Source: an uncultured bacterium (lineage in GTDB: Bacteria > Hydrogenedentota > Hydrogenedentia > Hydrogenedentales > JAEUWI01). From it: a stretch of 64,000 bases of DNA. Location: NCBI GenBank assembly GCA_963977445.1, contig CAXBPH010000003.1, forward strand, positions 6,529 to 70,528, written 5' to 3'. The notes beneath the pieces were generated by a model that was not told where the DNA came from, searched no databases, and saw only the letters and a program-made list of their open reading frames with translations. Positions 9,332-63,017 of this stretch are shown in pieces (positions within the stretch are counted from its first letter, which is position 1; each line of letters opens with the position of its first letter). A program made the translations under genes and the position numbers.

Positions 9332-9385
9332 CAAACGCCGCTCCCAGCGGCACGAAAAACCGGGAGCGACGTTTGTTTTGCTTTC
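9332..9385 (+). terminator. Imperfect hairpin (AAACGCCGCTCCC...GGGAGCGACGTTT) followed by TTTTGCTTT, in the convergent gap between DUF1501 and nirBD
   Basis: Inverted repeat plus T-rich tail seen directly. Confidence 0.3.
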
Positions 9386-9422
9386 CCAGTGATTCACCTT
9401 CTCTGGGAATATGGGTTCGAAG

Positions 9423-12828: not shown

Positions 12829-12844
12829 ACGTATCTAGATACGT
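12829..12844. promoter_or_regulatory. Perfect 16-bp palindrome ACGTATCTAGATACGT in the divergent nirBD/narK promoter region
   Basis: Seen directly. It sits in the AT-rich 630-bp intergenic region between the nitrite reductase and the nitrate transporter. Confidence 0.3.
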
Positions 12845-13062
12845 GCTTCTACCCATATCAATAAAGAATATCACCCAATAAAACAAGCAATTTTCATGCA
12901 GATTATGCGCCCACCTTTCCGGTAGAAACCGTCGACCGATGACGACAATCGCTATCCGTTACCGGGGCGTCAAGGGGCATCCGGGGACCTATTACGCCTT
13001 TGGCACAGATTTCGCGTTCATAGAGAAAATTTCCTGGCCTCCCTTACTGAAAGGAATCCTCT

Positions 13063-14409
13063 GTGGATATCAAGCACAAAGCTACCCGGATCGAACTATT
13101 TAACTTTAGAACGGTCCAGATGCGAGCCTTCCATATGTCGTGGTTTGCTTTCTTTCTTTGCTTTTTTGCCTGGTTCGGCATTGCTCCCATGATGGTTATC
13201 GTGCGAGACGAATTGTCCCTCACGAAGGCACAGATCGGAAACACGATCATCGCGTCGGTCGCCATCACCATCATTGCGCGCCTGTTTATCGGGTGGCTCT
13301 GTGATCGCATCGGCCCCCGTTTAACCTACACGTGGTTACTCGTTTTCGCGTCGATTCCAGTTATGGGTATCGGGCTGGCCCAGAGTTACGAAACCTTTCT
13401 TCTCTTTCGTCTGGGAATTGGTGCCATCGGTGCCTCATTCGTTATTACCCAATACCACACATCCGTCATGTTTGCACCCAACTGTGTGGGAACGGCCAAT
13501 GCCACCACGGCCGGCTGGGGCAATCTTGGCGGTGGTGTTACGCAGATGGTCATGCCCCTGCTTTTCAGCACCCTGCTGGTCATCGGCCTGAGTGAATTCT
13601 GGGCGTGGCGAACGGCCATGGTTATCGCTGGCGTAGTTTGCATGCTTACGGGTGTCGCCTATTATTTTGTTACGCAGGATACGCCGGACGGCAACTTCAA
13701 GGACCTCCGTGAACGGGGCCTGATGAGCTCGGCGAAGGACAACAAAGGTGCCTTTCTGGAGGCGGCGAAAGACTATCGCGTCTGGGCTTTGTTTTTTGTC
13801 TATGGCGCGTGTTTCGGCGTAGAACTCACCATCAACAACGTCATCGCCCTCTACTACACGGATTACTTCGGCATGGGTATGAAGGCCGCCGGTGCGTTGG
13901 CTGCCTGCTTCGGTCTCATGAACTTATTTGCCCGCACCCTGGGTGGCTTCTTTGGCGACAAACTTGGCATCAAGTATGGCCTGAAAGGACGGGTCCACTG
14001 GCTCACCGTCGCCCTCTTCATCGAAGGTCTTGCCCTCATGCTCTTCTCGCAGATGACCTTCCTCCCCCTGGCCCTGGGCACCATGATCATTTTCAGCCTC
14101 TTCGTGCAGATGTCGGAAGGCGCAACCTTCTCAGTCGTTCCCTTCATCAACAAACGGGCCCTTGGCGCGGTAGCCGGCATTGTCGGTGCCGGTGGAAACT
14201 TTGGTGCCGTATGCGCGGGCTTCCTCTTCAAGTCCGGTGCCATCACCTGGCCCCAGGCGCTACTTATTCTGGGCGTCATGGTAACCCTCTGTTCTGGGCT
14301 TACCGTGTTCGTCCGTTTCAGCGAAGCCGACGAACGGGCTGCCGAAGCCGCAAATGAACTCGCTCGGGACATGGAAGACGGGGCTGTTGCGGAACCCGCA
14401 TCCGCCTAG
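13063..14409 (+). CDS. narK: Nitrate/nitrite transporter (MFS, NNP family NarK/NrtP)
   Basis: GWGNLGGG NNP signature and 12-TM hydrophobicity. The N-terminus RAFHMSWFAFFLCFFAWF resembles NrtP. GTG start with AAAGGA RBS. Confidence 0.85.
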   Translation: MDIKHKATRIELFNFRTVQMRAFHMSWFAFFLCFFAWFGIAPMMVIVRDELSLTKAQIGNTIIASVAITIIARLFIGWLCDRIGPRLTYTWLLVFASIPVMGIGLAQSYETFLLFRLGIGAIGASFVITQYHTSVMFAPNCVGTANATTAGWGNLGGGVTQMVMPLLFSTLLVIGLSEFWAWRTAMVIAGVVCMLTGVAYYFVTQDTPDGNFKDLRERGLMSSAKDNKGAFLEAAKDYRVWALFFVYGACFGVELTINNVIALYYTDYFGMGMKAAGALAACFGLMNLFARTLGGFFGDKLGIKYGLKGRVHWLTVALFIEGLALMLFSQMTFLPLALGTMIIFSLFVQMSEGATFSVVPFINKRALGAVAGIVGAGGNFGAVCAGFLFKSGAITWPQALLILGVMVTLCSGLTVFVRFSEADERAAEAANELARDMEDGAVAEPASA

Positions 14410-14540
14410 ACATTGTGTTTTCCTGAAATGGGTTAACACCAGTAAAAGACCTCTTAATGTCGGGACGGATGGCAGCCAACGTGGCTACCATCCGTTGCGA
14501 CGTTAAACTCAAGCGCGACGAATGCGAAAAGAGTTACATT

Positions 14541-17500
14541 ATGGCACCCTCTGCAAAAGAAGCTATTAAGACCACATGTTCCTACTGTGGTGTGGGTTGC
14601 GGCATGGAGGTTACGCAGGATCACCTCGGACGGCTGAATCTCGAAGGCGATCCGTCCCACCCCGTCAGTCGCGGCATGCTCTGCACCAAAGGGCGCACCC
14701 TGCACCATGTTGTGCAGAATCAGCAGGACCGGTTGCTCCATCCCATGATGCGGCGTAGTCGCGCCCATCCGCTGGAACAGGTCAGCTGGGATGCTGCCCT
14801 GGAACGGGCCGCTGGTGTCTTTCGCTCTATCCTCAATCGTTTCGGGCCGGAATCGGTAGGGTTTTATGTGTCCGGACAGTGCCTTACGGAAGAATATTAT
14901 ATCGCCAACAAGCTGATGAAAGGGTTTATCGGCAGCAACAACATCGACACCAATTCACGACTCTGTATGAGTTCTGCCGTGGTCGGCTACAAGCTCTCAC
15001 TGGGCGACGATGCCTGTCCCATCAGTTATGAAGACATCGAGCTGGGCTCCTGCTTCCTCATCGCCGGTGCCAATCCGGCCTGGTGCCATCCCATTCTTTT
15101 TCGGCGCCTTGAACAACACAAGGAAGCCAATCCCGACACCAAAATCATTGTGGTGGACCCCCGGCGTACCCAGACCTGCGCCCAGGCGGATTTACATCTT
15201 CAAATTAAGCCCGGCACCGACGTGGTCGTATTCAATGCCATCGCCCGAGAACTCCACGAGCACGGCCATTGGGATGACGCCTTCATTCGGGATCACTGCA
15301 ATGGTGTCGAATCGCTGATCGATGCCGCCTACGCCATGACCGTTGCCGAGGCCGCCGAAGTCTGTGCCGTCCCAGCCGACGACATCCGGGCGGCAGCGCG
15401 ACTCATTGGGGAGAGCAACGCCTTTCAATCCTGGTGGGCCATGGGACTCAACCAATGCAGCAACGGCGTGGACAAAAATATCGCCCTCCTCAACCTGTCT
15501 CTGGTAACGGGCCAAATCGGAAAACCCGGTGCAGGTCCCTTCTCCCTCACGGGACAACCCAATGCCATGGGCGGCCGGGAAGTGGGTGGGCTATCCAACC
15601 TACTGGCAGCCCACCGGGATCTGGCCGATCCGAAAGAGCGCGCCTTTGTGCAAAACCATTGGGATTCGGGCCCCATCGCCGCAAAGCCGGGCCTGACGGC
15701 GACGGAAATGTTTGCCGCGCTCGAGTCGGGCACCATGAAGGCCATTTGGGTCATCTGCACCAATCCGGCCGTTTCCATGCCCAACTTGAGTCAAATCGAG
15801 CGGGCCCTGAAGAAGGCGCGCTTCGTCGTGGTCCAGGATATTTCCTCCCTGTCGGACACCGTTGAATACGCGGATCTGGTGTTGCCTGCTGCGGGCTGGC
15901 TCGAAAAACAGGGGACCATGACCAATTCGGAGCGTCGGGTGACCCACCTGCCCAAGTTACTGACACCGCCGGGTGAGGCCTTGCCGGATGTCGATATCTT
16001 GTGTCGATTCGCAAAGAAAATGGGCTGGTCGAAGCAGTTCACCTATGGCAGCGAAAGCGACATCTTTGATGAGCACTGCGCCCTGACCCGGGGCACCAAT
16101 ATCGACATGAGCGGTATGTCCTATGACCGCCTTAAAGCCGCTGGCAGCCTGCAATGGCCTTGTCCGACTGCAGACCACCCTGGCACCCCACGCCTCTTCA
16201 GCGACAAACGTTTTTTCACACCGGACCAACGGGCCGCGCTCCACGGTATTCTCCACGAGCCACGGTCGGAGGCCTTGAGTGAGGCCTACCCGATTGTGCT
16301 GACTACCGGTCGTATTCGTGATCAGTGGCATACCATGACGCGCACGGGCAAGGTGGCCAAGCTGCGGCAGCACCTGGACACGCCTTTCGTAGAAATTCAT
16401 CCCGACGATGCGCAGGCCCAATCCATCGCGGAAGGGGACACGGTCACGATTTATAATGACCGCGGTGCCGTGCGTGCACGCGCCCATATTTCCGACGCCA
16501 TCAAACAGGGCGTTGTCTTCCTGCCCATGCATTGGGGCAAGTCTCTCCAACGGGGCGCGGCCCGCGCCAATCTCGTGACGAGCACCCACGTGGATCCCAA
16601 ATCGAAAGAGCCCGACTTCAAGTTTGCTGCGGTGGCTCTGAGCAAGGCACCGGCGACCCGACTGCAAATCCTGATTGTGGGTGGTGGCACGGCGGCCCTG
16701 GCCTTTGTGCAGGAATACCGAAAACTGAACAACGACGATGAGCTCATTGTCTTTGGGAAAGAGGGCCACGGATTTTATAATCGCATACTTCTGCCCGACC
16801 TTATTGGCGGCGAGTGTACGTGGGATTCCATGCAGACCGCATCGGCGGAACGCCTCGCCCTGGATCGTATTCATTTTCACCCCGGCGTGCGAATCGATTC
16901 CATCAACCGGGACAAGCGGCTTATTATCGACAACACCGGTGCGTCTCATCCCTACGACCGTCTGGTCCTGGCAACGGGCAGCAGCCCCAGTCTACCCCCA
17001 GAAGCCCCCCGCAAATTGGATGGGGTCTTCACGCTACGCACGAAGAGTGATGCCGATAAGGTAATGGACCACGTCAAACCGGAACACCGGTGTATCGTTG
17101 TAGGGGGTGGGCTGCTCGGCCTCGAGCTGGTTGCAGCCCTTCGTCAGCGAGGTGCCTCCTGCCACCTCATCCACCGTTCCTCCCAGTTGATGGGCCGCCA
17201 ATTGGATGGCATGGCCGCGCAACTCCTCGCCGAAGAGCTCGCGGAACGTGGTATTACGTTGCACCTGAACGAATCGATTGCCTCCGTACACGGTCAACGT
17301 CACGTAGAGGGATTGCGCACGCGCAACGGCCACTATCTGCCCTGCGACGCCTTATTTTTCGCCACGGGCACGACACCCAATATAACCCTCGCCCGGCAGG
17401 CCAGTCTCCCCTGCGGCCACGGGGTGCATGTAGACGACACGATGGGCACGGTAGACCCCCATATATTTGCCATCGGAGAAATCGCGGAACACCGGCATCG

Positions 17501-18062
17501 CTGTTACGGCACCACCCCTGCCGCACAAGAACAGGCCCGGGTCGCGGCTGCCCAGATTTCCGGCGATCCGTGGACGCATTACGAAGGCAATATCCCTTTC
17601 AATGTATTGAAATTGAGCGGCCTGGCCCTGTGCAGTATGGGCCAGATCGAAGTAAAACGCGAGGATGGAAACTTTGAGGAGATTACCCTCCTCGACCGGG
17701 CAGAGCGGTATTACCAGAAGTGTATTGTCTATAAGAACCGTTTGGTGGGTGCCCTGCTATTTGGTGATATGAGTCAGATGGCCACCCTGAAAGATCTCAT
17801 TGCAACGGGCATCGAGCTAGATGACCGACGGCGGGAATTGCTCCGCGCGGGAAGCGCGACGACCCAGGTGCCTTTACAGGGGGCCTTGGTGTGCAGTTGC
17901 AACCAGGTGGGCAGGGGCAATTTGGAAGGTGCCCTCGCATCGGGATGCAGCAGCGTCGAGGAACTCTGTAATGCCACCGGAGCCGGACTTGGGTGTGGCA
18001 GCTGCAAACCGGAGGTGAGTGCCCTGTTTGAAGAACACAGCGCCGTAGTCACGGCAGGATAG
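14541..18062 (+). CDS. nasA: Assimilatory nitrate reductase: molybdopterin catalytic module (NasA-like) fused to a C-terminal FAD/NAD(P)H oxidoreductase plus BFD-like [2Fe-2S] module
   Basis: N-terminal CSYCGVGCG...C [4Fe-4S] motif of molybdopterin oxidoreductases. After ~aa 700 there is LQILIVGGGTAALAFV (Rossmann), then C-terminal CSCNQVG...CGSCKPEV BFD-like cysteines. ORF track starts at 14457; an ATG at 14541 gives MAPSAKEAIKTTCSYC. Confidence 0.85.
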   Translation: MAPSAKEAIKTTCSYCGVGCGMEVTQDHLGRLNLEGDPSHPVSRGMLCTKGRTLHHVVQNQQDRLLHPMMRRSRAHPLEQVSWDAALERAAGVFRSILNRFGPESVGFYVSGQCLTEEYYIANKLMKGFIGSNNIDTNSRLCMSSAVVGYKLSLGDDACPISYEDIELGSCFLIAGANPAWCHPILFRRLEQHKEANPDTKIIVVDPRRTQTCAQADLHLQIKPGTDVVVFNAIARELHEHGHWDDAFIRDHCNGVESLIDAAYAMTVAEAAEVCAVPADDIRAAARLIGESNAFQSWWAMGLNQCSNGVDKNIALLNLSLVTGQIGKPGAGPFSLTGQPNAMGGREVGGLSNLLAAHRDLADPKERAFVQNHWDSGPIAAKPGLTATEMFAALESGTMKAIWVICTNPAVSMPNLSQIERALKKARFVVVQDISSLSDTVEYADLVLPAAGWLEKQGTMTNSERRVTHLPKLLTPPGEALPDVDILCRFAKKMGWSKQFTYGSESDIFDEHCALTRGTNIDMSGMSYDRLKAAGSLQWPCPTADHPGTPRLFSDKRFFTPDQRAALHGILHEPRSEALSEAYPIVLTTGRIRDQWHTMTRTGKVAKLRQHLDTPFVEIHPDDAQAQSIAEGDTVTIYNDRGAVRARAHISDAIKQGVVFLPMHWGKSLQRGAARANLVTSTHVDPKSKEPDFKFAAVALSKAPATRLQILIVGGGTAALAFVQEYRKLNNDDELIVFGKEGHGFYNRILLPDLIGGECTWDSMQTASAERLALDRIHFHPGVRIDSINRDKRLIIDNTGASHPYDRLVLATGSSPSLPPEAPRKLDGVFTLRTKSDADKVMDHVKPEHRCIVVGGGLLGLELVAALRQRGASCHLIHRSSQLMGRQLDGMAAQLLAEELAERGITLHLNESIASVHGQRHVEGLRTRNGHYLPCDALFFATGTTPNITLARQASLPCGHGVHVDDTMGTVDPHIFAIGEIAEHRHRCYGTTPAAQEQARVAAAQISGDPWTHYEGNIPFNVLKLSGLALCSMGQIEVKREDGNFEEITLLDRAERYYQKCIVYKNRLVGALLFGDMSQMATLKDLIATGIELDDRRRELLRAGSATTQVPLQGALVCSCNQVGRGNLEGALASGCSSVEELCNATGAGLGCGSCKPEVSALFEEHSAVVTAG

Positions 18063-46233: not shown

Positions 46234-47043
46234 TTAGACGGCGTCGGAAACGATTTTCTTTCCGGTAACCGGGCAAACTTTGGCTTCACCTTCGGAAGAA
46301 GCGGCTTTGGCCTTGTCACACTCAGACTTGGCTTTGTCGCAGGTCTTGGCTTCGCCTTCGGAAGAAGCAGCCTTGGCCTTGTCACACTCAGCTTTCGCTT
46401 TGTCACAAGTCTTGGCTTCACCTTCGGAAGAAGCAGCCTTGGCCTTGTCACAAGCGGACTTGGGGCATTCGCCTTCAGAGGAAGCAGCCTTCGCTTTGTC
46501 ACAGGTCTTGGCTTCACCTTCAGAAGAAGCGGCTTTGGCCTTGTCACACTCAGACGTGGCTTTGTCACAGGTCTTGGCTTCGCCTTCGGAAGAAGCAGCC
46601 TTGGCCTTGTCACAGGTCTTGGCTTCACCTTCGGAAGAAGCGGCCTTCGCTTTATCGCACTGCTTCGCTTCACCTTCGGAGGAAGCAGCCTTGGCTACCT
46701 TCGTCTTGCAGCAGCTGGACGCTTCACCTTCAGAGGAAGCCGCCAACGCCTTATCGAAGGTCGCCTGCCGGTCGGCGATCAGCTTGGCTTTCTTTTCGCA
46801 TGGCTGAAAGGCATCTTCATTCGCTGCGGAAACCGTCTGCATGCCGAAGAAGGAGGCAACACTGTTCTTAGCACTCGTGATGGCGCAGGAACCTGATGCT
46901 CCGTTGTTCGCAACAACGCCAGCAGTCGCCACGCCGGATACGACGACCATAGCAGCAACGAAGGATGCCCATTTGCCTTTGTTACGTTTCGGTGCTTGAG
47001 CCGTTTCTTCGGTCACAAGCTCTTCCTGATGTTCTTCGTTCAT
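46234..47043 (-). CDS. Single-pass membrane protein with ~10 tandem 15-aa Cys/Lys/Ala-rich repeats (CDKAKAASSEGEAKT), function unknown
   Basis: Short cytoplasmic N-terminus, TM helix WASFVAAMVVVSGVATAGVVA, then the repeat array with ~17 Cys including C-x6-C and C-x4-C pairs. C-terminus VCPVTGKKIVSDAV. ATG at 47043 has GGAG 9 nt upstream. Shadow ORFs exist in the other frames. Confidence 0.55.
   Translation of the reverse strand: MNEEHQEELVTEETAQAPKRNKGKWASFVAAMVVVSGVATAGVVANNGASGSCAITSAKNSVASFFGMQTVSAANEDAFQPCEKKAKLIADRQATFDKALAASSEGEASSCCKTKVAKAASSEGEAKQCDKAKAASSEGEAKTCDKAKAASSEGEAKTCDKATSECDKAKAASSEGEAKTCDKAKAASSEGECPKSACDKAKAASSEGEAKTCDKAKAECDKAKAASSEGEAKTCDKAKSECDKAKAASSEGEAKVCPVTGKKIVSDAV
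46270..46745. repeat. ~10 tandem copies of a 45-bp coding repeat (with 12-21-bp insert variants)
   Basis: Near-identical units GCTTCACCTTCGGAAGAAGCGGCTTTGGCCTTGTCACA... are visible directly. The repeat is continuous and in frame, so it is not spacer/repeat organised like a CRISPR array. Confidence 0.8.
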
Positions 47044-47562
47044 TGAATATTGCTCCACAAGTGTTTAAATAAGTTACCCATGCAATCTACACGATAAACA
47101 TAGATTCAAAATTGACCCGATTTCATGTCAAAACCTGGAATTATTCGTAGGGTTCAGCATAACAAAAACTCCGCCACTTCGCAATCCTGTCGAAGCGCGC
47201 ATTTCCACGAACCCGAAAGAAATGAAAACAACCTAACCATCTCAATTTAAAGGCGTTACATAAAGTGTGTCTTTAACCCACAATCGCTGGAACGGCTACG
47301 TCGTCAGCTCACCAAGTTTCAATGCAGTGCAATTTGTCCGAAAAATCGCTGAAAACAGGTTGGTTGGCCGAGAACATTCATGAAATAACTGCCCCATAGG
47401 CCATGCCCCCACGAAGCCCCGACTCAACCGGTATTTTGCCGACTTCCGACGATGTTGCCGATGTTTTTGAGGAAGTGGTGGCGGAGTCTTGTGCGGGTGT
47501 CTTGGTGGCTTGGGTCGTTGTCGGTCATCGTCGGCTGCCTTTTAAGATTGCCGAAAAGGGGC

Positions 47563-47766
47563 CTACTCTGCGGGATGCGCAGCCGTGATCGCGACGGGCT
47601 CCGAGGCCTCGCGGCTCTTGCGCATGAGTTCCTGGTCGATCATGCCAAGTTCGGCGGCCAAACCGGCTGCGGCTACGGACAGGCAGGTTTCTTCCACTTC
47701 CGCCGCGTGGCGCATCCATTCGGGAAAAGGAAACGCATCACTTGTGCTATTCATATCCATGGTCAT
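47563..47766 (-). CDS. Small hypothetical protein (67 aa); its start overlaps the stop of the upstream GNAT-like gene by 4 nt
   Basis: ORF only. No motif recognised. The overlap suggests translational coupling. Confidence 0.3.
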   Translation of the reverse strand: MTMDMNSTSDAFPFPEWMRHAAEVEETCLSVAAAGLAAELGMIDQELMRKSREASEPVAITAAHPAE

Positions 47767-48329
47767 AGGTGCCTTTCCAGAATTCTCTCTGCATTGTCGC
47801 GCGAAAGTTCAAAGTACGTCAAGTTTTCGAAATCCACGTCAGGGCCCAACGGTGTCATCCAACACGCCCCTCCGTAGAAGGGTACGGACTGCGGCAAGGC
47901 ATGTAGGCCCACTCGACCTCCAAAGCCTTCGTCCCAGCTTTGCCGGACGGCGCGCTCGAACAGGTGGGGACCAATCAGGCCGTATTTTCGCGTTTGCCCG
48001 ATACCTGGAATGGTCCAGTTCCAAGGGGCGACTTCCAGGAAGTCTATATATACCAGCGGCTTGCCATGATCTTCGCCGAGTTGGGAGAAATGTGTCCCAG
48101 ACTTGGTCAGCATGGCACCCTGCCATTCGTCGTCACAGACCACGGCGAATCCAGATGCAGGAACCAGGCGCAGGTGCTGCGCCTTGGCCCGCCAGTTCCA
48201 GTTGAGGCTCTGGGGTCGCTCGGAATAGGGAAGACCCGCGCGGGCTATTTCGAGAAGGATGCGGGAGCGTTCTGGAGTCCACACCGATTCCAGTGTCAGC
48301 AGGTCTTCAGGCGCGACGAGGAGGGCCAA
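47763..48329 (-). CDS. GNAT-fold acyltransferase-like protein (tentative)
   Basis: 188 aa. VYIDFLEVAPWNW and EGFGGRVGLHAL weakly resemble GNAT motif regions. It sits between the low-GC acpS and the small ORF. Confidence 0.4.
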   Translation of the reverse strand: MALLVAPEDLLTLESVWTPERSRILLEIARAGLPYSERPQSLNWNWRAKAQHLRLVPASGFAVVCDDEWQGAMLTKSGTHFSQLGEDHGKPLVYIDFLEVAPWNWTIPGIGQTRKYGLIGPHLFERAVRQSWDEGFGGRVGLHALPQSVPFYGGACWMTPLGPDVDFENLTYFELSRDNAERILERHL

Positions 48330-48348: not shown

Positions 48349-48732
48349 CTACTCACCCGTTGCGATGGCACTGGCGAAAGCGATTCCGCTCGAATAGCTA
48401 ATACTCACATGCCAATCTAAGATACCGAGCTCATCAGAAAACTTTGCCACGTCATGATTTAGCCTTACATATGGAGCCCCGTTCTTCCCCCGAAGAATTT
48501 CTATTCCATGCCACGTTATTTTTCCAGAAAACCCAGTACCAAGAGCCTTTGCGATGGCCTCCTTTGCGGCGTATCTACCTGCATAGTAACGATAGTGGGC
48601 TGGGGGAGGGTCGGCGGCTTCTCGCTCGTCTATTGAGCAAAAGCAATTGACCCAGCTATTCGTACCTGAGTCAATTTCATTTCTTATACGTTGAATTCTT
48701 TCAATATCGATTCCGTGACCAATGATTCGCAT
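48349..48732 (-). CDS. acpS: Holo-[acyl-carrier-protein] synthase (4-prime-phosphopantetheinyl transferase, AcpS type), low GC and probably island-borne
   Basis: MRIIGHGIDIERIQRI...YAAKEAIAKALGTG...WHVSISYSSGIAFASAIA aligns along its whole length with the AcpS family. The gene is ~40-50% GC in a ~60% GC genome. Confidence 0.85.
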   Translation of the reverse strand: MRIIGHGIDIERIQRIRNEIDSGTNSWVNCFCSIDEREAADPPPAHYRYYAGRYAAKEAIAKALGTGFSGKITWHGIEILRGKNGAPYVRLNHDVAKFSDELGILDWHVSISYSSGIAFASAIATGE

Positions 48733-48740
48733 GCATCCCC

Positions 48741-50624
48741 CTATTTTATTTCTCGAACTACGATATCTCTCTTGTCAAGATCCAGGTCAACAGTTCCGCC
48801 TCCACGAGATTTCAACTCTCTCCAAACTTTGAAGCCCTGCAGGATAGCGCGTTCCCATTCTCCCGTTGTGCATGCTGACACCTCAAGATGAAGGACGGTA
48901 TTCTTTATCATTCGTAACAATTCACTACTGACCGACAATTTACCCTCTAGGAAGTTGTAGTCACGAGCGTAGGCAAAAATCATTGCCGATAGTGCCTCTT
49001 CCGTGACAATCGCCCTTGCACCATCTTCCACTTCGTCAACTTTCGGATCACTCTTTCGCTTCGCTGTGAACATTTTCCTGACGAGTGGAGACCAACCTAG
49101 AACCGCAGCGAAAGACAAATGGATTACATCGTGGAGTCCGTAACCATCGTTCTCGTAAGCGTTGTCAGTCAAGTCATCACCAAACTGCTGACCCTTGTAC
49201 ATCACCCGTATTTTTGGGTTGTTGAATTCGTCATGGTATGTGCTGAAATCGAGTGAAAAACTACGTGGAAATTGTTCATTTTCGGGATATCCTGCATCGA
49301 ACGGAGTTCGCGAAGGTAACGTGCCCCACCGTTCATCACATTTCGCCAAGTTAAGCTCGGCGATCTCCTTCAGATCGAGATTAAACTTCGTGGCGACGTT
49401 TGCCACATACCACAGCAAGTCTCCGAGTTCCTCGCTTAAGCGGTCCTTAAACAATTTATGCGTGTCACCGTCCCGAAGATATTTCTTGTATTCACTCAAC
49501 AATTCACCGGATTCGCTTGCGAGGCCCAACAGAGGAATCGTTAGCGAAGACTCGTCCACACCGGGATTTTGATCTGTCCCGGCAACTTTCTCTTGGTATT
49601 TGCCCATATCCATGGCTCTTGTCTCCAGGTTCACCCCCGTACTCGATCGATTTTCTTCGTTTGAGCTGGTACGGCTGATTAATTCGTTTATGCCCCACTT
49701 GGGTGGGTACCAATAGTCGATTGGTTCTAAAATAGGCTTCAGCTTCTGCTTTATGCGACTTCGCCCTGATTTTCCGACGAATTCTGGATGTACAACTCGC
49801 GCGTACTTGTCTACTTCACAAAACAGGTTTTGGCAATCAATCAATTGAAGCGGCCTTCCCCATAAGTCGGAAAAATCTATGCCCAGTCGATTAAATTCCT
49901 CATCCTGCCTCTCGGTCACCCACCGGATTATTTGTGCAGTATCCTTCTTTCCCGGGTTTAGAAAGCACTTCTGGATTCCATCGAGTGCTCCGGGGCCTGC
50001 GACCACAAAGTCCATTTCAGAGAAGTTAATGATGGTGCTGTAGTTCAAATCGGTAACATACTGATAGGCTAGAAAGTTGCCTATCCCAGGTGATGACCGC
50101 ATTGATTCGAACGCCTCTTCCATGGACTCCGAATCAGCAATTCGTTTCGGTAGCTCCGAAGACATCATGTATTCAAGTAACTTAAGATGGTTCTGGTGTT
50201 TGAATGTTAGCGAAAATTTTCGGACGGAGGGCATTATATAGGCTGCGGAATAGATCCGCTGGCCTCGCGTCATCGCCTGACTTAAGACACGGTCATATGC
50301 CTTGTATGAGTAATCGGCGTATGTGAGATGGCCAAGCTCATTCTCAAGTAGTTTCCATGTATCGATGCGATTGAAAAGTTTGAATAGAATTATGCGAAAA
50401 AACACTTCAGCTGGATGAGTCGGGAGGTCTTCGTTGTATATTACGTTCCTAATGAGATATTGGCTCACTCTGTCAGAGGCTCTGTAGGCGTTCGTGAATT
50501 TGTGGTTTTGAAGCACAGCGTCATCCGTCCACGGAAGAGGGCGCTTACTTATTCGTCGAAAGAAGATTCTCTGTCGCTCGGCGGCGAATTTCCAATACGT
50601 ATCGTATACAGGAGTAGTTTTCAT
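48741..50624 (-). CDS. 627-aa multidomain protein: N-terminal uncharacterised domain (possibly aGPT-pyrophosphorylase-like) plus a central MazG-like NTP pyrophosphohydrolase domain
   Basis: Central ESGELLSEYKK...EELGDLLWYVANVATKFNLDLKEIAELNLAKCDERW matches the MazG EExxE / ELGDxL motifs. The N-terminal 300 aa (MKTTPVYDTYWKFAAERQRIFFRR...PWTDDAVLQNHKFTNAYRASDRVSQYL) reminds me of nucleotide-base hypermodification-associated families, but I cannot verify that here. Confidence 0.6.
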   Translation of the reverse strand: MKTTPVYDTYWKFAAERQRIFFRRISKRPLPWTDDAVLQNHKFTNAYRASDRVSQYLIRNVIYNEDLPTHPAEVFFRIILFKLFNRIDTWKLLENELGHLTYADYSYKAYDRVLSQAMTRGQRIYSAAYIMPSVRKFSLTFKHQNHLKLLEYMMSSELPKRIADSESMEEAFESMRSSPGIGNFLAYQYVTDLNYSTIINFSEMDFVVAGPGALDGIQKCFLNPGKKDTAQIIRWVTERQDEEFNRLGIDFSDLWGRPLQLIDCQNLFCEVDKYARVVHPEFVGKSGRSRIKQKLKPILEPIDYWYPPKWGINELISRTSSNEENRSSTGVNLETRAMDMGKYQEKVAGTDQNPGVDESSLTIPLLGLASESGELLSEYKKYLRDGDTHKLFKDRLSEELGDLLWYVANVATKFNLDLKEIAELNLAKCDERWGTLPSRTPFDAGYPENEQFPRSFSLDFSTYHDEFNNPKIRVMYKGQQFGDDLTDNAYENDGYGLHDVIHLSFAAVLGWSPLVRKMFTAKRKSDPKVDEVEDGARAIVTEEALSAMIFAYARDYNFLEGKLSVSSELLRMIKNTVLHLEVSACTTGEWERAILQGFKVWRELKSRGGGTVDLDLDKRDIVVREIK

Positions 50625-50672: not shown

Positions 50673-51497
50673 CTAAAAATCGTCATGAATAGGCTCGGAA
50701 ACTGTGCTCGTCACAGATTTGCAAAGTATTTTGTTAGAGCGCGTGATCAAGTCACGTGCATTGCGTACCCCCCAAGGAAATTGTTTTGAATCCTTAATTC
50801 TGGCTGGGCCTTTATCAATTTCGGCATGTGTGGAGACACAGGTGAGCGAACCGACGGTTAGGCCAGCTCGCTCTGCCACAAACGCCTGAAGTTGCCCCAA
50901 ACCGATTAGATTGCCAAGGCACCGAGATATGTACGTGTGGTTACGGTACATTGCTGTAAGCATCAAGCCCTTGTTTGGATGACATTTAAAGCTCAAAAAA
51001 CTGAGGCATTGTCCCCCCCATCGACTACGCCCATCCTCCAAGGGATCGTAAACCGCTAGCTCATATGCCGACTTGAACTTCTGACCACCATTCTCGCGTT
51101 CTTGTAGCTTACCGATCAGCTGTTCTAGTGGATTGTATGTCTTGCCGAGCCTAGTCTGATGCCTGGTCATTCGCTCAAAGTACCTACCCCAGCGCCGGGT
51201 CTTCGTCAGTCTATCGAACGCTTCATGGTATTTCTCGTAGAACACCGGAGCCCCGTGCTGATTGTAGAGTGATTGGGGAAAAATCGTGTTACAGACCGTG
51301 GATATGGGGTAGCAATCGTACTTTCGTAGAAAATCGTCTACCTCTGAAATGATTTCATTGTCAGTTGAATCGAACGATACGGGATTTTCTACATCAACAA
51401 TAACGTTGTATCCCTCATCATTGTGCTTCATGATCTCCATTGCAGCCGCTACCCACGCTCGCGCACAACTCTTCTGTGTCGGGATGGCGATGTACAT
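50673..51497 (-). CDS. Thymidylate-synthase-fold enzyme (ThyA / dCMP-dUMP hydroxymethylase superfamily, divergent)
   Basis: GGQCLSFLSFKCHPNKGLMLTAMYRNHTYISRCLGNLIGLGQLQAFVAERAGLTVGSLTCVSTHAEID aligns with the ThyA core PCHAFFQFYV...[21 protein letters not shown]...VGDFVWTGGDTHLY. QCL sits at the position of the catalytic PCH. Confidence 0.55.
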   Translation of the reverse strand: MYIAIPTQKSCARAWVAAAMEIMKHNDEGYNVIVDVENPVSFDSTDNEIISEVDDFLRKYDCYPISTVCNTIFPQSLYNQHGAPVFYEKYHEAFDRLTKTRRWGRYFERMTRHQTRLGKTYNPLEQLIGKLQERENGGQKFKSAYELAVYDPLEDGRSRWGGQCLSFLSFKCHPNKGLMLTAMYRNHTYISRCLGNLIGLGQLQAFVAERAGLTVGSLTCVSTHAEIDKGPARIKDSKQFPWGVRNARDLITRSNKILCKSVTSTVSEPIHDDF

Positions 51498-51509: not shown

Positions 51510-52157
51510 CTAATGCGTAATAAATGCGGAAAAGATTCGCGACCCGAGATAACGTTTGCTCAACCAGGCGTAGCCATGAAGGCCCCAGGATTCACCCCAA
51601 CTGTTTCTGATAGCGATATACTTTTCGCTGTTTTTCGTAGCTGTTGCGACGGCAACAACAGCGTGTCGTCGAACCGGGTCGATAGGCTCAGTTGAATCAA
51701 CGATTCCAACGTTGTCCGGGGTATAGAACGCATCTGAGAACGACATCGCGAGGACGACGGGCTTGTCGGTTTGGATGCAGTCCCAAACGGCGTCAAATGT
51801 GGCGGTTAAGGCGCTAGTATGGCATTGGAAAAGTTGCCCTACGTTGTTGGGAGGCTTCCAGTGCGAAATTGGGCTTGGCAATGCCTTGAGGTAGGGCCAG
51901 GCGAGTTCGTTCGGTTGCCCGTCCCCAGTTAATGCAGAGCATACCCCCGGAATGGAAACACCCAAATCTGGAGAGCTTCTCTCCCACTTTATCGCGTAGT
52001 AGTATAGGTACTCACACGACAAGGGTTGCCAATTCCTCTCCAGTGCGGCGGAATGTGCGTCGCTCGTGGCGAACGCCAGGCATGTCGGGCGCGCTCCTTG
52101 ATCGCGAGCGCTGCCAAAATATGGTCGTAGGTCGTGACGGATAATCATCGAACTCAT
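51510..52157 (-). CDS. Papain-like cysteine peptidase (C1A-like, compact, no pro-region)
   Basis: QGARPTCLAFA matches the QG-x-C-G-S-C-W-A-F spacing of the catalytic Cys. HAVVAVA matches the His region. NSWGESWGLHGYAWL matches papain NSWG..WG..GY. Confidence 0.7.
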   Translation of the reverse strand: MSSMIIRHDLRPYFGSARDQGARPTCLAFATSDAHSAALERNWQPLSCEYLYYYAIKWERSSPDLGVSIPGVCSALTGDGQPNELAWPYLKALPSPISHWKPPNNVGQLFQCHTSALTATFDAVWDCIQTDKPVVLAMSFSDAFYTPDNVGIVDSTEPIDPVRRHAVVAVATATKNSEKYIAIRNSWGESWGLHGYAWLSKRYLGSRIFSAFITH

Positions 52158-53167
52158 GGGCGACTCAACATTGCTTGGCGTTGAGCTGGCAGGAGGCCGG
52201 TTTGTAGTGGTCCTGTCAAGTTTACATCAAATTCGAGCGACTGTAGAGATTCATCATCTGAGAGCCATGGTCGCTGTTCACGAAGATTCACGTGACCGAG
52301 TGCCGACTGCTCCGGTTCAGCCACGATCTTACGTTCGACAATACTACCGATTGCATTTTCAGTCGAGCGGGCCTCTCGGATGTCCTCAACTATTTTGAGG
52401 CCGACTTTGGAGAGACTGTCAAACGACCACATGTACCCTGATGAAGCGTGTTCGATCAGCTCGAGAATCACGATGTCGTGCGCGCTTCCTTCAATTAGGA
52501 GCCTTTGATCGCCCATGCCAAGCACCCATATATCCGCATACCATGATTCTGGGGTGTGCTGTTTGGTGAGCTGCTGCTTGATAGATTTTGGTTGGGTTTT
52601 GAGCAGGGAGTCTCGTACTGATTTCGAAATCGCATTGTGCTTGAGGAGCGCATGACAAGTCGCCGCATAGCTTGACCCCATCCGTAAGGCCAATTGGTAG
52701 ACTATTTTCGGAGACGTTAGGTCTGAGCTCGCCCACCCTTGTTGACCCATGTGGTGCGTGATTAGCCATTTCGGTGTAAGCAGTTCGGAGGCAAACGCAT
52801 TTGCCTGCAGTTCTATGAGATCAAGAGCTGCCCCGCTCTCAAACGGAGTTCGGTTTAGCCTGGATTCGTCATCTAGACTAGACGAGTGCCCCATGACCGC
52901 GTGACCCAATTCGTGTGCTGCCGTGAAGCGCTGTACGGAAAGGGGGCGTTGTGTGGTCAACAGAACTCCAGATCCATTTTCTTCCAAATAGCATCCGAGC
53001 AGCCCCTTCATCGGTTGGAACATGACAGGTATGTCGAGAGCTGCGAGAAGTCCAAACACATCGATGCGTCCCACCCCACTCTTTACCTTTTTTTTGACAC
53101 CATGGCTAGCATGTAATCGGTTAGCAGCAAGAGCCGCCTCGAGTATAGCCTTACGAACGTCTGGCAT
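52154..53167 (-). CDS. ImmA/IrrE-family zinc metallopeptidase (COG2856) with a ~190-aa C-terminal domain of unknown function
   Basis: HEXXH in AAHELGHAVMGH, preceded by the typical ImmA helix. Its start overlaps the C1 peptidase gene by 4 nt. Confidence 0.75.
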   Translation of the reverse strand: MPDVRKAILEAALAANRLHASHGVKKKVKSGVGRIDVFGLLAALDIPVMFQPMKGLLGCYLEENGSGVLLTTQRPLSVQRFTAAHELGHAVMGHSSSLDDESRLNRTPFESGAALDLIELQANAFASELLTPKWLITHHMGQQGWASSDLTSPKIVYQLALRMGSSYAATCHALLKHNAISKSVRDSLLKTQPKSIKQQLTKQHTPESWYADIWVLGMGDQRLLIEGSAHDIVILELIEHASSGYMWSFDSLSKVGLKIVEDIREARSTENAIGSIVERKIVAEPEQSALGHVNLREQRPWLSDDESLQSLEFDVNLTGPLQTGLLPAQRQAMLSRP

Positions 53168-53170
53168 AGG

Positions 53171-53551
53171 TCAGCCCCCTTTTTGCGCTTTCCTCGATTT
53201 CAAGAATTCTGCGAATCTGGCGAGTTCGCTGCGATCTTCCGGGGCCAATTCAGATACCTGCCGTGCCAGATGAGCGACTTCCTTGTCAACTGGATGCGTG
53301 TCAGCGGTTTCACCGGTAAAAAAGTTCAGAGACCTCCCGTAGAGTTCGGCTAATTTCTTGAGTTCAAACACTTCAACTTTCCTCAGCCCTGCTTCCATCA
53401 AAGATAGCGCGGAACGAGAAGTACCTACTTTCGTGGCTATTTCGTTCTGGGAGAATCCAACATACTCTCGGGCTTCACGTAGCCGGTCACCAAGTACCTT
53501 TCTATCGCTATCACCTTCAACTTTTTTATTGTTGGGAGCTCTACTACTCAT
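53171..53551 (-). CDS. XRE-family (Cro/C1-type) helix-turn-helix transcriptional regulator
   Basis: LGDRLREAREYVGFSQNEIATKVGTSRSALSLMEAG is the HTH_3 motif. The ATG at 53551 overlaps the stop of the upstream ACP-like gene in an ATGA arrangement. Confidence 0.8.
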   Translation of the reverse strand: MSSRAPNNKKVEGDSDRKVLGDRLREAREYVGFSQNEIATKVGTSRSALSLMEAGLRKVEVFELKKLAELYGRSLNFFTGETADTHPVDKEVAHLARQVSELAPEDRSELARFAEFLKSRKAQKGG

Positions 53552-53868
53552 TTGCTTCCCTTTCTTTTTTCCTCTTCTTGGCACAATTTATCTATACGCA
53601 GCATCATATCGTCAATTGCTTCATCAACACTTTGATAGCCGCCTTTTCGTATAGTCTTGTCTGGAGGTAGTCGAAAACCAACGATTGGCTCGATGGCTAA
53701 CAAAGTGCTTACGACGGCAAAGGAGTCCAAAAGTGGCTCCCAAACCTTGCGCAACAGAGCCCCCTCATCCACAATCTCGTCAAGCTTGTCAGTCAAAACT
53801 GCCCGAATTTCGCAAGAAGTCAAATGAACATCTTCGTCGATTTGAAACGCTGTGGATGTGTTTGCCAT
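53548..53868 (-). CDS. Acyl-carrier-protein-like (phosphopantetheine-binding) small protein
   Basis: LLDSFAVVSTLLAIEPIVGFRLPPDKTI...SVDEAIDDMMLRI parallels ACP helix II/III (DSLDTVELVMALEE...FGIEIPDE...TVGDLVDYI), with Ser in DSF at the 4-prime-PP attachment position. Confidence 0.55.
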   Translation of the reverse strand: MANTSTAFQIDEDVHLTSCEIRAVLTDKLDEIVDEGALLRKVWEPLLDSFAVVSTLLAIEPIVGFRLPPDKTIRKGGYQSVDEAIDDMMLRIDKLCQEEEKRKGSK

Positions 53869-53935
53869 ACCGAATCTCCTGTGCTACTTGGTTAGGATAC
53901 CAAAATTCAGTTGGAAAATCAAACACAAAATATCA

Positions 53936-53958
53936 ATATGTTAGATTTTCTAACATAT
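53936..53958. promoter_or_regulatory. Perfect palindrome ATATGTTAGA-TTT-TCTAACATAT upstream of the island operon; candidate XRE-repressor operator
   Basis: 10-bp arms seen directly, ~70 nt upstream of the ACP-like gene start. A second long dyad (TATAGCCCAGGG...CCCTGGGCTATA) lies at 53961-54024. Confidence 0.45.
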
Positions 53959-54059
53959 GGTATAGCCCAGGGTTTTGCTTGTTCGCGCTTGGGGCGTGAA
54001 CTTGCTGCGCCCTGGGCTATAGTGTGTCACCCCGTTGGGGCTATTCAGATCGCCCTGTA

Positions 54060-54294
54060 CGGATTCGCCGAAGAATGACACTTCGCCCGAAGTGGGCGCC
54101 AGCAACCCCATGAGCACCTTGATGGTCGTGCTCTTACCCGCGCCATTGGGCCCGAGAAGGCCGAAGGCGGCCCCACGCTTTATTTGGAGATTGAGGCCGT
54201 GGACACCATCTCCGTGTTCGTAGGTTTTTACGAGTTCTGAGATTTCGACCACCGACTCGGTCTTCACCGGGGCCTGTTTATCCATAACCTGCAC
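54060..54294 (-). pseudogene. N-terminal fragment of an ABC transporter ATP-binding protein (Walker A GPNGAGKST) with nonsense readthrough after ~78 aa
   Basis: ORF 53950..54294. Homology is recognisable only to ...SGEVSFFGESV; the remaining 35 aa are unrelated junk before the stop. The break coincides with the island boundary. Confidence 0.5.
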
Positions 54295-60706: not shown

Positions 60707-61897
60707 CTACCGAAGGCGAAACTCACCAATCAATCCAGGCCGTCGCGCAAGCAAACTCTCTAAGTGACTATCTGCCCACATTTCGATGCGAAGTGCCGAA
60801 TCTGATTGGTTGTGGTTCTCGATTATTTGAATAGCATCTGTGCTGAATCTGCCGGACGTCGCAATAATGTGAACATCAACTCGCGGCGGCTCCCAGAGTT
60901 TCATTTGCTCTCTCAAAGTCGCAATTTCCTTAGCACCGACGCTTTTCGACAGCCAATGCTTGCATTGAATAATCACTCGCAGGCGAAACGTTCCGCCTAG
61001 TTTGTCGAGAAACACTCTTTGGCACGAAAGATCCCGTCCTCTGTCTGACGCGTTCGTCTTAGTAAGCCACTCCGCATTTTCGTAACCTTCGGTTTGCGAT
61101 ATCAGATTGAAAACCAATCTCTCGAAATCATCCTCATCGATGGCTTCCCAGTTTAGCTTGGTTGCGATTTCTCCGACGGGCCTAGCCTTAACTAACTCAC
61201 CCAAATCGTCGACGGCCACCGGTAATGGGTCGGAACTACCGTATAAAATCTCCGTCATCCCCGCGTCGACAGCTGGCCAATCGTGCTTTATTATGTCTCG
61301 AAGATCGCCAATCATACCGTAATGAAGGTGCCTTTTCAGATCACCCCATCTCGGAGGACGCTTGGCACTACTTCCCAAGATAGTATCGATTCTGGAAACA
61401 CTGGAGACCAATACTTCCCAGTCGTCACCGTCGACAGAACCGTTAGCCTCGAGTTTGCTCGGATAGTCTGTGCGAAGACGCGCCAGCGCTAAATTGGCGA
61501 TACGTATCTCTTCAAGTAATGCGTGACGAAATACCGTTCTCCGTGACCTATTCAACCGATAACGGTACTCTTTGAGGTCTTTCTCTGGCGAGAATATGTG
61601 CTCATCTATTATTACGGCACTCTCAAAGTCGCCAATCTCCATGGCGTCAAATCTGAATTGTCCGATTTCATTTAGCTCTAAGAGTGAATCTGGCATTGTC
61701 CATCCATCAATCTTAGGAAGAGCTTCACGTACTTGACGATAATCTCGGCAGCAATCATCGTACACTCCGTCGGTCATGTCCCCGAACGAAACACTTTCAG
61801 GAATCATCGATTTGATCTTTTCCCACAAAGCTTCTAACTTCACAAGATTGGCTTCGGTTGCTTCAAATTGCTTCAATGCATCGTTCAATGAGCTCAT
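60707..61897 (-). CDS. Restriction-endonuclease-like (Mrr-cat type PD-(D/E)xK) domain protein with an uncharacterised N-terminal domain; low GC (~48%)
   Basis: The C-terminal region RGRDLSCQRVFLDKLGGTFRLRVIIQCKHW fits the D-x-G-x-D...Q-x-K pattern of the Mrr catalytic domain. Base composition is far below that of its neighbours. Confidence 0.55.
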   Translation of the reverse strand: MSSLNDALKQFEATEANLVKLEALWEKIKSMIPESVSFGDMTDGVYDDCCRDYRQVREALPKIDGWTMPDSLLELNEIGQFRFDAMEIGDFESAVIIDEHIFSPEKDLKEYRYRLNRSRRTVFRHALLEEIRIANLALARLRTDYPSKLEANGSVDGDDWEVLVSSVSRIDTILGSSAKRPPRWGDLKRHLHYGMIGDLRDIIKHDWPAVDAGMTEILYGSSDPLPVAVDDLGELVKARPVGEIATKLNWEAIDEDDFERLVFNLISQTEGYENAEWLTKTNASDRGRDLSCQRVFLDKLGGTFRLRVIIQCKHWLSKSVGAKEIATLREQMKLWEPPRVDVHIIATSGRFSTDAIQIIENHNQSDSALRIEMWADSHLESLLARRPGLIGEFRLR

Positions 61898-61943
61898 CTA
61901 GATTTGCTCCACCCTACAGCTGGCCGCGGTCACCCAACCCACC

Positions 61944-63017
61944 TTATTTCGTCACCATCCGCCCCACGGGATAGCCCGCCGAATAGTCGATTTCCCAACA
62001 CCCATTGGGCGTGGTGTAGCAAATCGTTTCCTTGCGCTCAAAGTCGGCCGTACCCTGCCGCACCGCCGCATCGGGGCTGTCCGCAAGCAACTGGGGGTCG
62101 GCCATATGCTGCACAATCTTCGTGCGGTCACCGAGACTGTGACCCGTACCCTTGAACACCACGTCGTCCAAGTGCGCATCGGTCAGGAACAACGCCGTCA
62201 CCGGCATACCCGCCGCCACCATGTTCCGCACCACCTCTTCCTTGTCCGCCACGGGACAAACGTCGTCGGTTGTTCCATGGACCACAAAAATCTTCGTTTC
62301 CTGCCCGTAGTCCACCATCTGCTTCAGGTGGGTGGGATTGCTGAGATCACGCAGGGCCTGGGCGTCGGGGGAGAGGTATTCGGGAGTTGCCGGGTCCTTA
62401 CTGTAGCCCGCGTTAAGCCGTGAGCCCCCTTCGATACCAAAGGCGATATCGTCGCTCAGTTTGGCCATGCCGCACATATCGACAATCGCGGCGAAGGTCC
62501 GGGGCGCAAGCTTATTGACCATCTGGGTCACGTTACCGCCGCCCGAGCCGCCGGTAGAGTAGATACGCCCCGCGTTAAAGGCCGTACCCCCTTCCTGGAG
62601 TCCATTGTAGACCCAATACAGGGCACGAAGCGCATCAAGCCCTTGCAGATAGCCATAGTCATAGGGCGGCATGTCGTCTTCGTATTTGCCGCTCTGAAGA
62701 TAGTCCAGGCAGATGGCAACCGTGTTGTAGCGGTCCGCCAATAGCTGGGGGTCGGCCGTGCCTGACGCATTGGTGCCACCCCAATTGTGGAGGCTGAGGA
62801 AAAGACCCGTGTGTTCGTTCACATTGGCGAGGGCCTTGCCGGGGTAATACACATAGGCCACAAACGTCCGTGGACCGTCCTGAAAGGCCCATTCCTGCGC
62901 GGGGAGTTCCGCCGATGCGTTTTCAGCGGGCAACGCGGGCCAGGGCCGCTCATCGGCGGCATAGGCTGAAATAGAAGCAAGACAGGCCAACAAGGCAAGG
63001 GCGATTCGAAAACGCAT
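61944..63017 (-). CDS. Secreted alpha/beta-hydrolase (esterase/lipase-like), paralog 2
   Basis: Signal peptide MRFRIALALLACLASISAYA and GGSGGGN. The 3-prime ~150 bp is ~90% identical at DNA level to the paralog 1 gene. Confidence 0.7.
   Translation of the reverse strand: MRFRIALALLACLASISAYAADERPWPALPAENASAELPAQEWAFQDGPRTFVAYVYYPGKALANVNEHTGLFLSLHNWGGTNASGTADPQLLADRYNTVAICLDYLQSGKYEDDMPPYDYGYLQGLDALRALYWVYNGLQEGGTAFNAGRIYSTGGSGGGNVTQMVNKLAPRTFAAIVDMCGMAKLSDDIAFGIEGGSRLNAGYSKDPATPEYLSPDAQALRDLSNPTHLKQMVDYGQETKIFVVHGTTDDVCPVADKEEVVRNMVAAGMPVTALFLTDAHLDDVVFKGTGHSLGDRTKIVQHMADPQLLADSPDAAVRQGTADFERKETICYTTPNGCWEIDYSAGYPVGRMVTK

Follow-up and report, generated by a model that had tools for sequence, protein, structure and literature searches.

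Why a bacterial genome should carry a 4'-phosphopantetheinyl transferase (PPTase) inside a compact operon of low guanine-cytosine (GC) content, and which protein that enzyme would modify, are the questions raised by a 64,000-nt stretch of contig CAXBPH010000003.1 from an uncultured bacterium of the Hydrogenedentota (positions 6,529 to 70,528), hereafter the window. The established settings for carrier proteins and PPTases are lipid, polyketide, non-ribosomal peptide, and teichoic-acid chemistry. The original prediction for this locus held that an AcpS-type PPTase and an acyl carrier protein (ACP)-like protein of 106 amino acids (aa), encoded at opposite ends of the operon, form a private pair engaged in thiotemplated acyl or aminoacyl transfer. 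Our analysis favors a different setting for such a pair: with modest confidence, we consider it probable that a dedicated PPTase and its own carrier belong to a horizontally mobile, inducible, nucleotide-modifying cassette, most likely with an anti-phage function.

The AcpS gene (48349-48732, minus strand) encodes a protein of 127 aa and is the last gene of the low-GC cassette. Its product matches the Pfam family ACPS (PF01648; E = 2.9e-16, 59.9 bits, cut-off 25) as well as the NCBIfam models TIGR00516 (acpS; 64.3 bits, cut-off 59.8) and TIGR00556 (72 bits, cut-off 45.35), and aligns over its full length with AcpS proteins of solved structure, such as 3qmn (E = 1.5e-13). Residues D9, E58, and K62, which we take to be the equivalents of the Mg2+/coenzyme A (CoA)-binding residues D8, E58, and K62 of Bacillus subtilis AcpS, are invariant across 28 cassette AcpS proteins and the Vibrio cholerae AcpS (3qmn). 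We regard the enzyme as intact and complete in its catalytic residues, and predict that it is active. It fails all lineage-specific housekeeping equivalogs of NCBIfam by a wide margin (for instance, 83 vs 165), no fab, pdxJ, or era gene neighbors it, and no second acpS or acpP was found within the 64-kb window. A word-indexed search recovered 366 AcpS relatives; among the best 120 of these, almost all are 127 aa long and 56-68% identical to the query, and at eight loci (L001-L006, L008, and L010) the gene occupies the identical position in the cassette. Some relatives reside on conjugative plasmids, for instance pSfreNXT3a of Sinorhizobium fredii, so that a housekeeping role is unlikely for those copies.

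The operon that AcpS closes consists of seven tightly packed open reading frames (ORFs) on the minus strand (53868-48349), which encode, in order, the 106-aa carrier, an XRE-family helix-turn-helix (HTH) regulator, an M78 peptidase with a chagasin domain, a papain-like peptidase, a thymidylate synthase (TS)-like enzyme, a fusion of HMUDK_hel, MazG, and MazG_C domains, and AcpS. The successive junctions are an ATGA overlap, 3 nt, a 4-nt overlap, 12 nt, 48 nt, and 8 nt. The cassette, 5.6 kb in size, has a GC content of 49.6%, compared with 57.0% in the rest of the window, and its single genes range from 45 to 53%, with acpS at 47.1%; the claim that a complete AcpS of about 40-50% GC sits inside a low-GC island is thus borne out. 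Upstream of the operon lies an AT-rich leader (53869-53949, minus strand), read from the sequence, with an AGGAG ribosome-binding site 8 nt ahead of the carrier ATG; we infer a promoter there, although a consensus promoter scan did not pick up this segment.

The carrier protein (53548-53868, minus strand) contains WEPLLDSFAVVSTLLAIEPIVGFRLPPDK, in which D48-S49-F50 make up the 'DSF' motif that had been proposed to mark an ACP-type helix II. Among 65 members of its family, W43, P45, L46, L47, D48, S49, P68, P69, D70, G76, G77, and Y78 are invariant, forming the motifs W-x-P-L-L-D-S and, further on, P-P-D...G-G-Y. Both the Asp-Ser pair (65 of 65) and the position of the gene at the head of the operon agree with the original prediction. 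The family, comprising 317 proteins, includes none with a Pfam domain, and the 106-aa protein had zero matches in Pfam, NCBIfam, PADLOC, and PHROGs. Its AlphaFold2 model (predicted local distance difference test score, 72.8) contains helices at residues 18-36, 49-63, 69-72, and 81-104, in the order typical of carrier proteins, with Ser49, the predicted phosphopantetheine attachment site, at the N terminus of helix II. Foldseek ranked the CurD-associated ACP, DltC, and the CurA ACP at the top of its PDB matches, below statistical significance. Aligned with hhalign to a small, partly hand-entered ACP/DltC alignment, the family matched with 85% probability (E = 6e-6, 42 columns), with Ser49 placed on the attachment serine; a profile search of PDB with the family yielded ACP matches only at non-significant levels (E = 0.5-1.1). 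The strongest support is positional. In related cassettes, a small ORF at the same place carries the classical 'GFDSL' motif; 7 of 10 such positional equivalents tested match PF00550, two above the gathering score (22.7 and 21.7 vs 20.8 bits) and five below it, and together they align over the full length with ACP (97% probability, E = 2e-11). One of them, on a cyanobacterial plasmid, is labeled 'acyl carrier protein' by NCBI. Judging from this evidence and the structural model, the 106-aa protein is a putative divergent carrier protein.

A separate feature of this protein is the stretch between predicted helices III and IV (window 53635-53649), where the invariant Gly76-Gly77-Tyr78 follows a near-invariant Arg74-Lys75. 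The Gly-Gly-Tyr stretch was observed solely in carriers of the type found together with the papain-like peptidase, and residues 74-78 might be a processing site.

The pairing of the two proteins is supported by gene order and by covariation. Around AcpS relatives, the identical seven-gene order was observed on contigs of 3 Mb, 10.9 Mb, and 290 kb and in five further genomes. Across 83 loci, of which 35 contain AcpS, presence of the carrier and of AcpS is associated (counts, 29/18/6/30; p = 4e-5), and five of the six apparent cases of AcpS without a carrier are contig ends or ORF-picking artefacts. The type of carrier matters as well: cassette AcpS accompanies 27 of 30 carriers that lack Asp and Glu in the seven residues after the serine, compared with 6 of 34 carriers with the canonical Glu (odds ratio 42, Fisher p = 3e-9, uncorrected for shared ancestry). 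Two plasmid cases found later fit the same rule, namely, the S. fredii carrier 'FNSKVWPVAA', which is accompanied by acpS, and the Allocoleopsis carrier 'GFDSLLCIEA', which is not. Ordinary AcpS enzymes recognize the acidic face of carrier helix II; the private AcpS would therefore travel with carriers that host PPTases would probably reject, and its near confinement to loci with a non-acidic helix II argues for a dedicated pair. Given that the gene order recurs in unrelated genomes and that AcpS covaries with carrier type, the association is not due to chance, and this part of the original prediction, the private PPTase/carrier pair, is upheld.

The genes for two putative nucleotide enzymes lie between the peptidase genes and acpS. 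The TS-like enzyme (274 aa; 50673-51497, minus strand) matches TIGR03283, the archaeal thymidylate synthase model, below its threshold (E = 1.7e-10), and had no match among PDB sequences; Cys164, R109, and G195-N196 are conserved in at least 90% of 60 cassette homologs, and the homologs on plasmids are named 'thymidylate synthase' by NCBI. The fusion protein (627 aa; 48741-50624, minus strand) combines, according to Pfam, an HMUDK_hel domain similar to clade-1 aGPT-Pplases (E = 2.5e-114), a MazG pyrophosphohydrolase domain (E = 5.4e-6), and MazG_C (E = 8.3e-70), of which HMUDK_hel and MazG_C were reportedly defined by Iyer et al. in 2013. In HMUDK_hel, C269 and E270 are invariant, and the metal-binding motifs of MazG are present. 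The HMUDK_hel domain aligns with gp55 of phage M6 (25% identity, E = 7e-20), including a C-E-x-D-K-Y motif, and the protein aligns with gene 3 of the anti-phage system DS-4 (29% identity, E = 7e-29); the match of the domain to the clade-2 protein gp51 of M6 had E = 1.9. In view of the MazG metal motifs, Cys164 of the TS-like enzyme, and Cys269-Glu270 of HMUDK_hel, these enzymes are predicted to act on substrates of the dUMP/dUTP type. Neither a P-loop 5-hydroxymethyldeoxyuridine (5-hmdU) DNA kinase nor a clade-2 aGPT-Pplase (amino acid:DNA transferase) was found, Pfam showing only HMUDK_hel, MazG, and MazG_C in the fusion, and none of the cassette versions examined encodes an adenylation enzyme, acyltransferase, ketosynthase, or ligase with which an acyl or aminoacyl group could be loaded.

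Control of the cassette can be predicted from the genes that follow the carrier gene. The HTH regulator (53171-53584, minus strand; Pfam HTH_31/HTH_3; PADLOC capH, E = 3.5e-15) probably starts at the ATG at 53551, which overlaps the carrier stop codon as ATGA. The next gene (52154-53167, minus strand) encodes an M78 zinc peptidase of the ImmA/IrrE/CapP type (Peptidase_M78, E = 9e-11; PADLOC capP, E = 4.7e-16) with conserved H85, E86, and H89 (HExxH) and a C-terminal chagasin-like Inhibitor_I42 domain, which scores 23.7 bits in the window protein, under the 27.2-bit cut-off, and 29.3 bits in the ortholog from locus L003. It is followed by a gene for a cytoplasmic papain-family (C1) cysteine peptidase (51510-52157, minus strand; Peptidase_C1, E = 1.7e-11), in which H165 and N185 are invariant and a Q20/C26 motif can be read from the sequence. 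Chagasin-family (I42) domains inhibit papain-like peptidases. Carriers of the 106-aa type, C1 peptidases, and chagasin domains fused to M78 always occur together (8 of 8 loci), and the I42 domain is absent from cassettes without the C1 peptidase (for example, L012 and L055), which suggests that the M78-borne I42 domain and the adjacent peptidase form a built-in protease/inhibitor latch.

The cassette is also present in Planctomycetota, Armatimonadota, and other phyla, with wider variants in Cyanobacteria, Bacteroidota, Rhizobia, and conjugative plasmids, and in two of the three relatives on long contigs integrase or recombinase genes are found nearby. A scan with the 627-aa protein, restricted to one genome per species, identified 80 loci in Planctomycetota, Cyanobacteria, Bacteroidota, Chloroflexota, Acidobacteriota, Verrucomicrobiota, Pseudomonadota, and other phyla. 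The locus census and clustering resolved two architectures, with the TS-like and HMUDK_hel genes in common. One of these, the layout of DS-4, includes ThsB-TIR and Nmad2. The other consists of carrier, HTH, M78, TS-like, and HMUDK_hel genes, with MazG/MazG_C, dCTP deaminase, a second TS, radical SAM, DUF1643, AcpS, and C1 peptidase as optional additions, and the window cassette represents a subtype of it. Of the HTH/M78-type cassettes with TS-like and HMUDK_hel genes, nearly all begin with a carrier gene. A metagenome search that started from the carrier, with an alignment of four carrier sequences as the query, returned 80 loci, and all 80 showed the order carrier, HTH, M78, TS-like, HMUDK_hel wherever the contig was long enough; the carriers of these loci all have the canonical helix II 'DSLxG(V/I)E'. 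Overall, about 130 loci of this family were observed in many phyla and on conjugative plasmids, including full-length relatives on those of Sinorhizobium, Rhizobium, and cyanobacteria. In S. fredii pSfreNXT3a (locus L165, record 5687-17595), the cassette is bordered on one side by genes for a dCTP deaminase and a second thymidylate synthase and on the other by an 'ABC-three component system' and an AAA ATPase gene, surroundings that resemble a defense island. In ten cyanobacterial loci (L012-L018, L020, L026, and L028; for example, L012 11920-12928), AcpS is located on the opposite strand, convergent with MazG/MazG_C, and is followed by a DUF1643 gene.

Among known systems, the closest comparison is with DS-4 ('NTTI'), an anti-phage system validated in Escherichia coli (DefensePredictor, Science 2026, PMC13092281). 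Both have a core of a thymidylate-synthase-family enzyme and an HMUDK_hel protein, and the DS-4 effectors ThsB-TIR and Nmad2, although absent from the window cassette, are present in sister loci. In contrast, DS-4 contains an adenylate-kinase-like gene, TIR, and Nmad2 and lacks the carrier, AcpS, the HTH/M78 pair, MazG/MazG_C, and the papain peptidase, and the TS-like proteins of the two are barely alignable (E = 0.95). By gene content, the window cassette is thus a relative of DS-4 rather than a member of that system. The same study describes MazG/MazG-C/dUTPase/aGPT-Pplase loci as predicted, unvalidated defense systems (Fig. 6F and S12B-C); their described domains, namely, HMUDK_hel/aGPT-Pplase, MazG, MazG_C, DCD/dUTPase, DUF1643/UDG-like, and HTH, match the content of the wider cassette family. 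In the domain annotations and text searched, neither a carrier nor a PPTase appears; 'holo-ACP synthase' is among the product names in one supplementary table.

The HTH gene followed by an M78 zinc peptidase gene with a conserved HExxH recalls CapH/CapP of CBASS and ImmR/ImmA; in the window, however, the pair is preceded by a carrier gene, has a chagasin domain beside a papain-like peptidase, and controls other cargo. We consider the pair to be a CapH/CapP-like inducible switch, with presumed cleavage of the regulator by the peptidase. AcpS functions with ACP in fatty-acid synthesis and with DltC in the D-alanylation of teichoic acids, and the window proteins share with these the AcpS fold with its catalytic Asp, Glu, and Lys, as well as four predicted helices with an Asp-Ser opening helix II; the motif LLDSFAVVSTLLAIE resembles what we take to be the corresponding motif of DltC, LLDSFGTVELLLAIE. 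Unlike ACP and DltC, the window carrier has a non-acidic helix II, a length of 106 aa with a long helix IV, and no PF00550 match, and its cassette has no partner ligase, acyltransferase, or synthase. Phage thymidine hypermodification (5-HMUDK and aGPT-Pplase of M6, ViI, and PaMx11; PMC8989533) offers a third parallel in the gp55 homology, the Cys-Glu motif, and the TS-family enzyme, yet the window cassette has neither a P-loop kinase nor a clade-2 transferase, and cassettes of its type are found on cellular genomes and plasmids under repressor/peptidase control. Annotation pipelines name individual cassette genes as 'holo-ACP synthase', 'acyl carrier protein', 'thymidylate synthase', and 'nucleotide kinase domain-containing protein'. 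A literature search, incomplete in its coverage, found no report of a carrier/PPTase pair inside a phage-defense or nucleotide-modification system.

Taken together, these features suggest the following scenario. The XRE repressor and the CapP-like M78 peptidase would keep the operon silent pending a signal of infection or DNA damage and, in the window subtype, the chagasin domain would restrain the papain-like peptidase. AcpS would convert the apo-carrier to the holo-carrier on Ser49, drawing on CoA, and with its own AcpS the cassette, once transferred horizontally, would not depend on host PPTases. MazG, joined by dCTP deaminase in sister cassettes, would supply dUMP-type substrates to the TS-like enzyme and to HMUDK_hel with its Cys-Glu pair, both of which would proceed via an electrophilic C5 exocyclic methylene. 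Because every variant lacks an acyl- or aminoacyl-loading enzyme, the most parsimonious role for the pantetheine arm is that of its thiol, which, in the least certain step, would capture or carry the methylene intermediate. Clade-2 aGPT-Pplases, which are related enzymes, form a C5 exocyclic methylene open to capture by amines, hydroxyls, or an added thiol, and the methylene produced by aGPT-Pplase2 is trapped by beta-mercaptoethanol as a thioether (PMC8989533), which makes capture by a carrier thiol chemically plausible. Even so, the specific proposal that the holo-carrier thiol is the nucleophile that captures a C5-methylene pyrimidine from the TS-like enzyme and HMUDK_hel, yielding a protein-tethered modified nucleotide, is one that we put forward as a tentative and rather doubtful guess. 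If correct, it would place a thiotemplate in the service of nucleotide chemistry in immunity rather than acyl chemistry, and the adduct might be a toxic or signaling output or a DNA-protein crosslinker on phage DNA. The broader result is of real interest because function is directly testable: the 5.6-kb cassette is small enough for cloning, and both the role of Ser49 and the cargo of the pantetheine can be addressed directly by mass spectrometry. A carrier gene holds the conserved first position in a widespread family of cassettes whose enzymatic core is shared with an experimentally validated defense system, and covariation of helix II with AcpS provides a rule, both simple and testable, for orthogonal PPTase/carrier pairs.

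The defense context is indicated by the capH and capP matches, the homology to DS-4, the sister loci with ThsB-TIR and Nmad2, the nearby integrases and recombinases, and the ABC-three-component system on the plasmid. Several observations weigh on the other side. For this architecture, defense is a prediction, and gp55 of M6, the phage homolog of the HMUDK_hel domain, is dispensable in vitro and has no known activity. As to the carrier, the Foldseek matches to carriers are not significant (E about 0.3, TM-score 0.40-0.49), neither the 106-aa protein nor any of the 65 family members has a PP-binding match even at E = 10, and hhalign links this family to the canonical cassette carriers only weakly (25% probability). 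The covariation statistic ignores kinship and rests on roughly four to six independent lineages, namely, type A cassettes, cyanobacterial 'DSMLWPVAI' carriers, Bacteroidota 'T/S-S-Q-V-L' carriers, and single loci from Rhodospirillales and Sphingobacteriales. AcpS, moreover, is absent from most cassettes, including all 80 carrier-first loci, so the PPTase is an accessory and phosphopantetheinylation of these carriers stays a prediction at the level of sequence. Finally, the carrier is always accompanied by HTH and M78, and DS-4-type loci, where the TS-like and HMUDK_hel genes occur without an HTH/M78 pair, lack it; this pattern fits a regulatory role equally well. This last point introduces the main rival, in which the holo-carrier is part of a carrier-HTH-M78 sensor and the state of its pantetheine arm (free thiol, acylated, oxidized, or removed) signals a disturbance, either metabolic or inflicted by a phage, and controls whether M78 cleaves the repressor. 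Besides the phyletic pattern, the sensor would account for the carrier gene being always immediately upstream of HTH-M78 and translationally coupled to HTH, and for the lack of a loading enzyme in any cassette. A generic sensing module should, however, vary in its cargo, and a carrier-HTH-M78 triad with varied cargo was not seen: behind the triad, all 80 carrier-first loci have TS-like and HMUDK_hel genes and no other effector. In addition, to our knowledge, no ImmA/ImmR or CapH/CapP system uses a carrier protein, and the literature search found none. We therefore regard the sensor as unlikely, while keeping it as the principal competitor.

The nucleotide enzymes could also be taken to indicate that the cassette is not an immune system but a pathway for hypermodification of the DNA or nucleotides of the cell or of the element itself, or for a nucleoside metabolite, with the carrier loaded by host enzymes. 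HMUDK_hel is indeed homologous to phage thymidine-hypermodification proteins (493 phage records, and M6 gp55), and TS-like, MazG, and dCTP deaminase genes are typical of modified-nucleotide supply. Nevertheless, a single relative was found among 2.9 million viral contigs, and the phage matches cover only the N-terminal domain at no more than 37% identity, on which grounds we rejected a phage-borne hypermodification module as the main explanation; furthermore, a P-loop 5-hmdU kinase, a clade-2 transferase, a polymerase, and a glycosylase are all lacking, and the repressor/peptidase control, the patchy spread on plasmids and islands, and the homology to a validated defense system point to conflict. 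The pathway thus appears decidedly improbable. More remote still is the model in which the GNAT-like protein, encoded after AcpS, would receive a thiotemplated acyl or aminoacyl group from the carrier. The gene in question (47763-48329, minus strand, TTG start) does lie 19 nt downstream on the same strand and encodes a GNAT-fold protein of 188 aa (AlphaFold2 score 96; Foldseek E = 7e-6 to GNAT toxins), with weak GNAT Pfam matches in half of its relatives. Its GC content, however, is a host-like 58.4%, all 164 related loci examined lack a homolog, and a dCTP-deaminase-like gene takes the place after AcpS in 6 of the 11 closest cassettes. The protein belongs to a large family independent of the cassette (about 930 clusters), is about 20 N-terminal residues short of the roughly 208 aa typical of that family, and, among 83 Foldseek matches at E <= 1e-3, those listed are all GNATs, headed by 7byy, AtaT, and GmvT, which are CoA-dependent toxins rather than ACP-dependent enzymes. 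The GNAT protein was accordingly ruled out as a pathway member, and since no cassette contains a loading enzyme, classical thiotemplated acyl transfer is unsupported; both of these elements of the original prediction lack support, and the model as a whole is largely refuted. Equally improbable is a housekeeping acpS that happens to share the segment with an unrelated 106-aa ORF bearing a coincidental Asp-Ser motif. The latter would fit the lack of a Pfam match or significant fold match in the 106-aa family; against this stand the low-GC setting of AcpS away from fab, pdxJ, and era, its 56-68% identity to cassette AcpS proteins of other phyla combined with scores far below the housekeeping equivalog cut-offs, its covariation with carrier type, and the invariance of the motif in 65 of 65 proteins.

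The borders of the cassette are consistent with insertion. On the AcpS side, the GNAT gene is, by the evidence given above, best described as a truncated neighbor that has no part in the cassette, and it was probably truncated when the cassette arrived. On the carrier side lies an N-terminal fragment of an ABC ATPase gene (53950-54294, minus strand), in which about 85 residues are followed by unrelated sequence and a stop codon, and an imperfect inverted repeat of 28 nt (53961-54021) coincides exactly with the break; this looks like the other junction. Neither flanking direct repeats nor a tRNA gene was found at the island borders.

Elsewhere in the window, a 274-aa protein (46234-47058, minus strand), with zero matches in any family library scanned, combines a hydrophobic N-terminal stretch with numerous, almost identical repeats of the KAKAASSEGEAKTCDKA type, encoded by DNA with tandem repeats of 45, 66, and 162 nt. 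Two further 1-kb bins, 12001-13000 and 61001-62000, have a GC content of about 48-49%, compared with a window mean of 56%, and may be other acquired segments.

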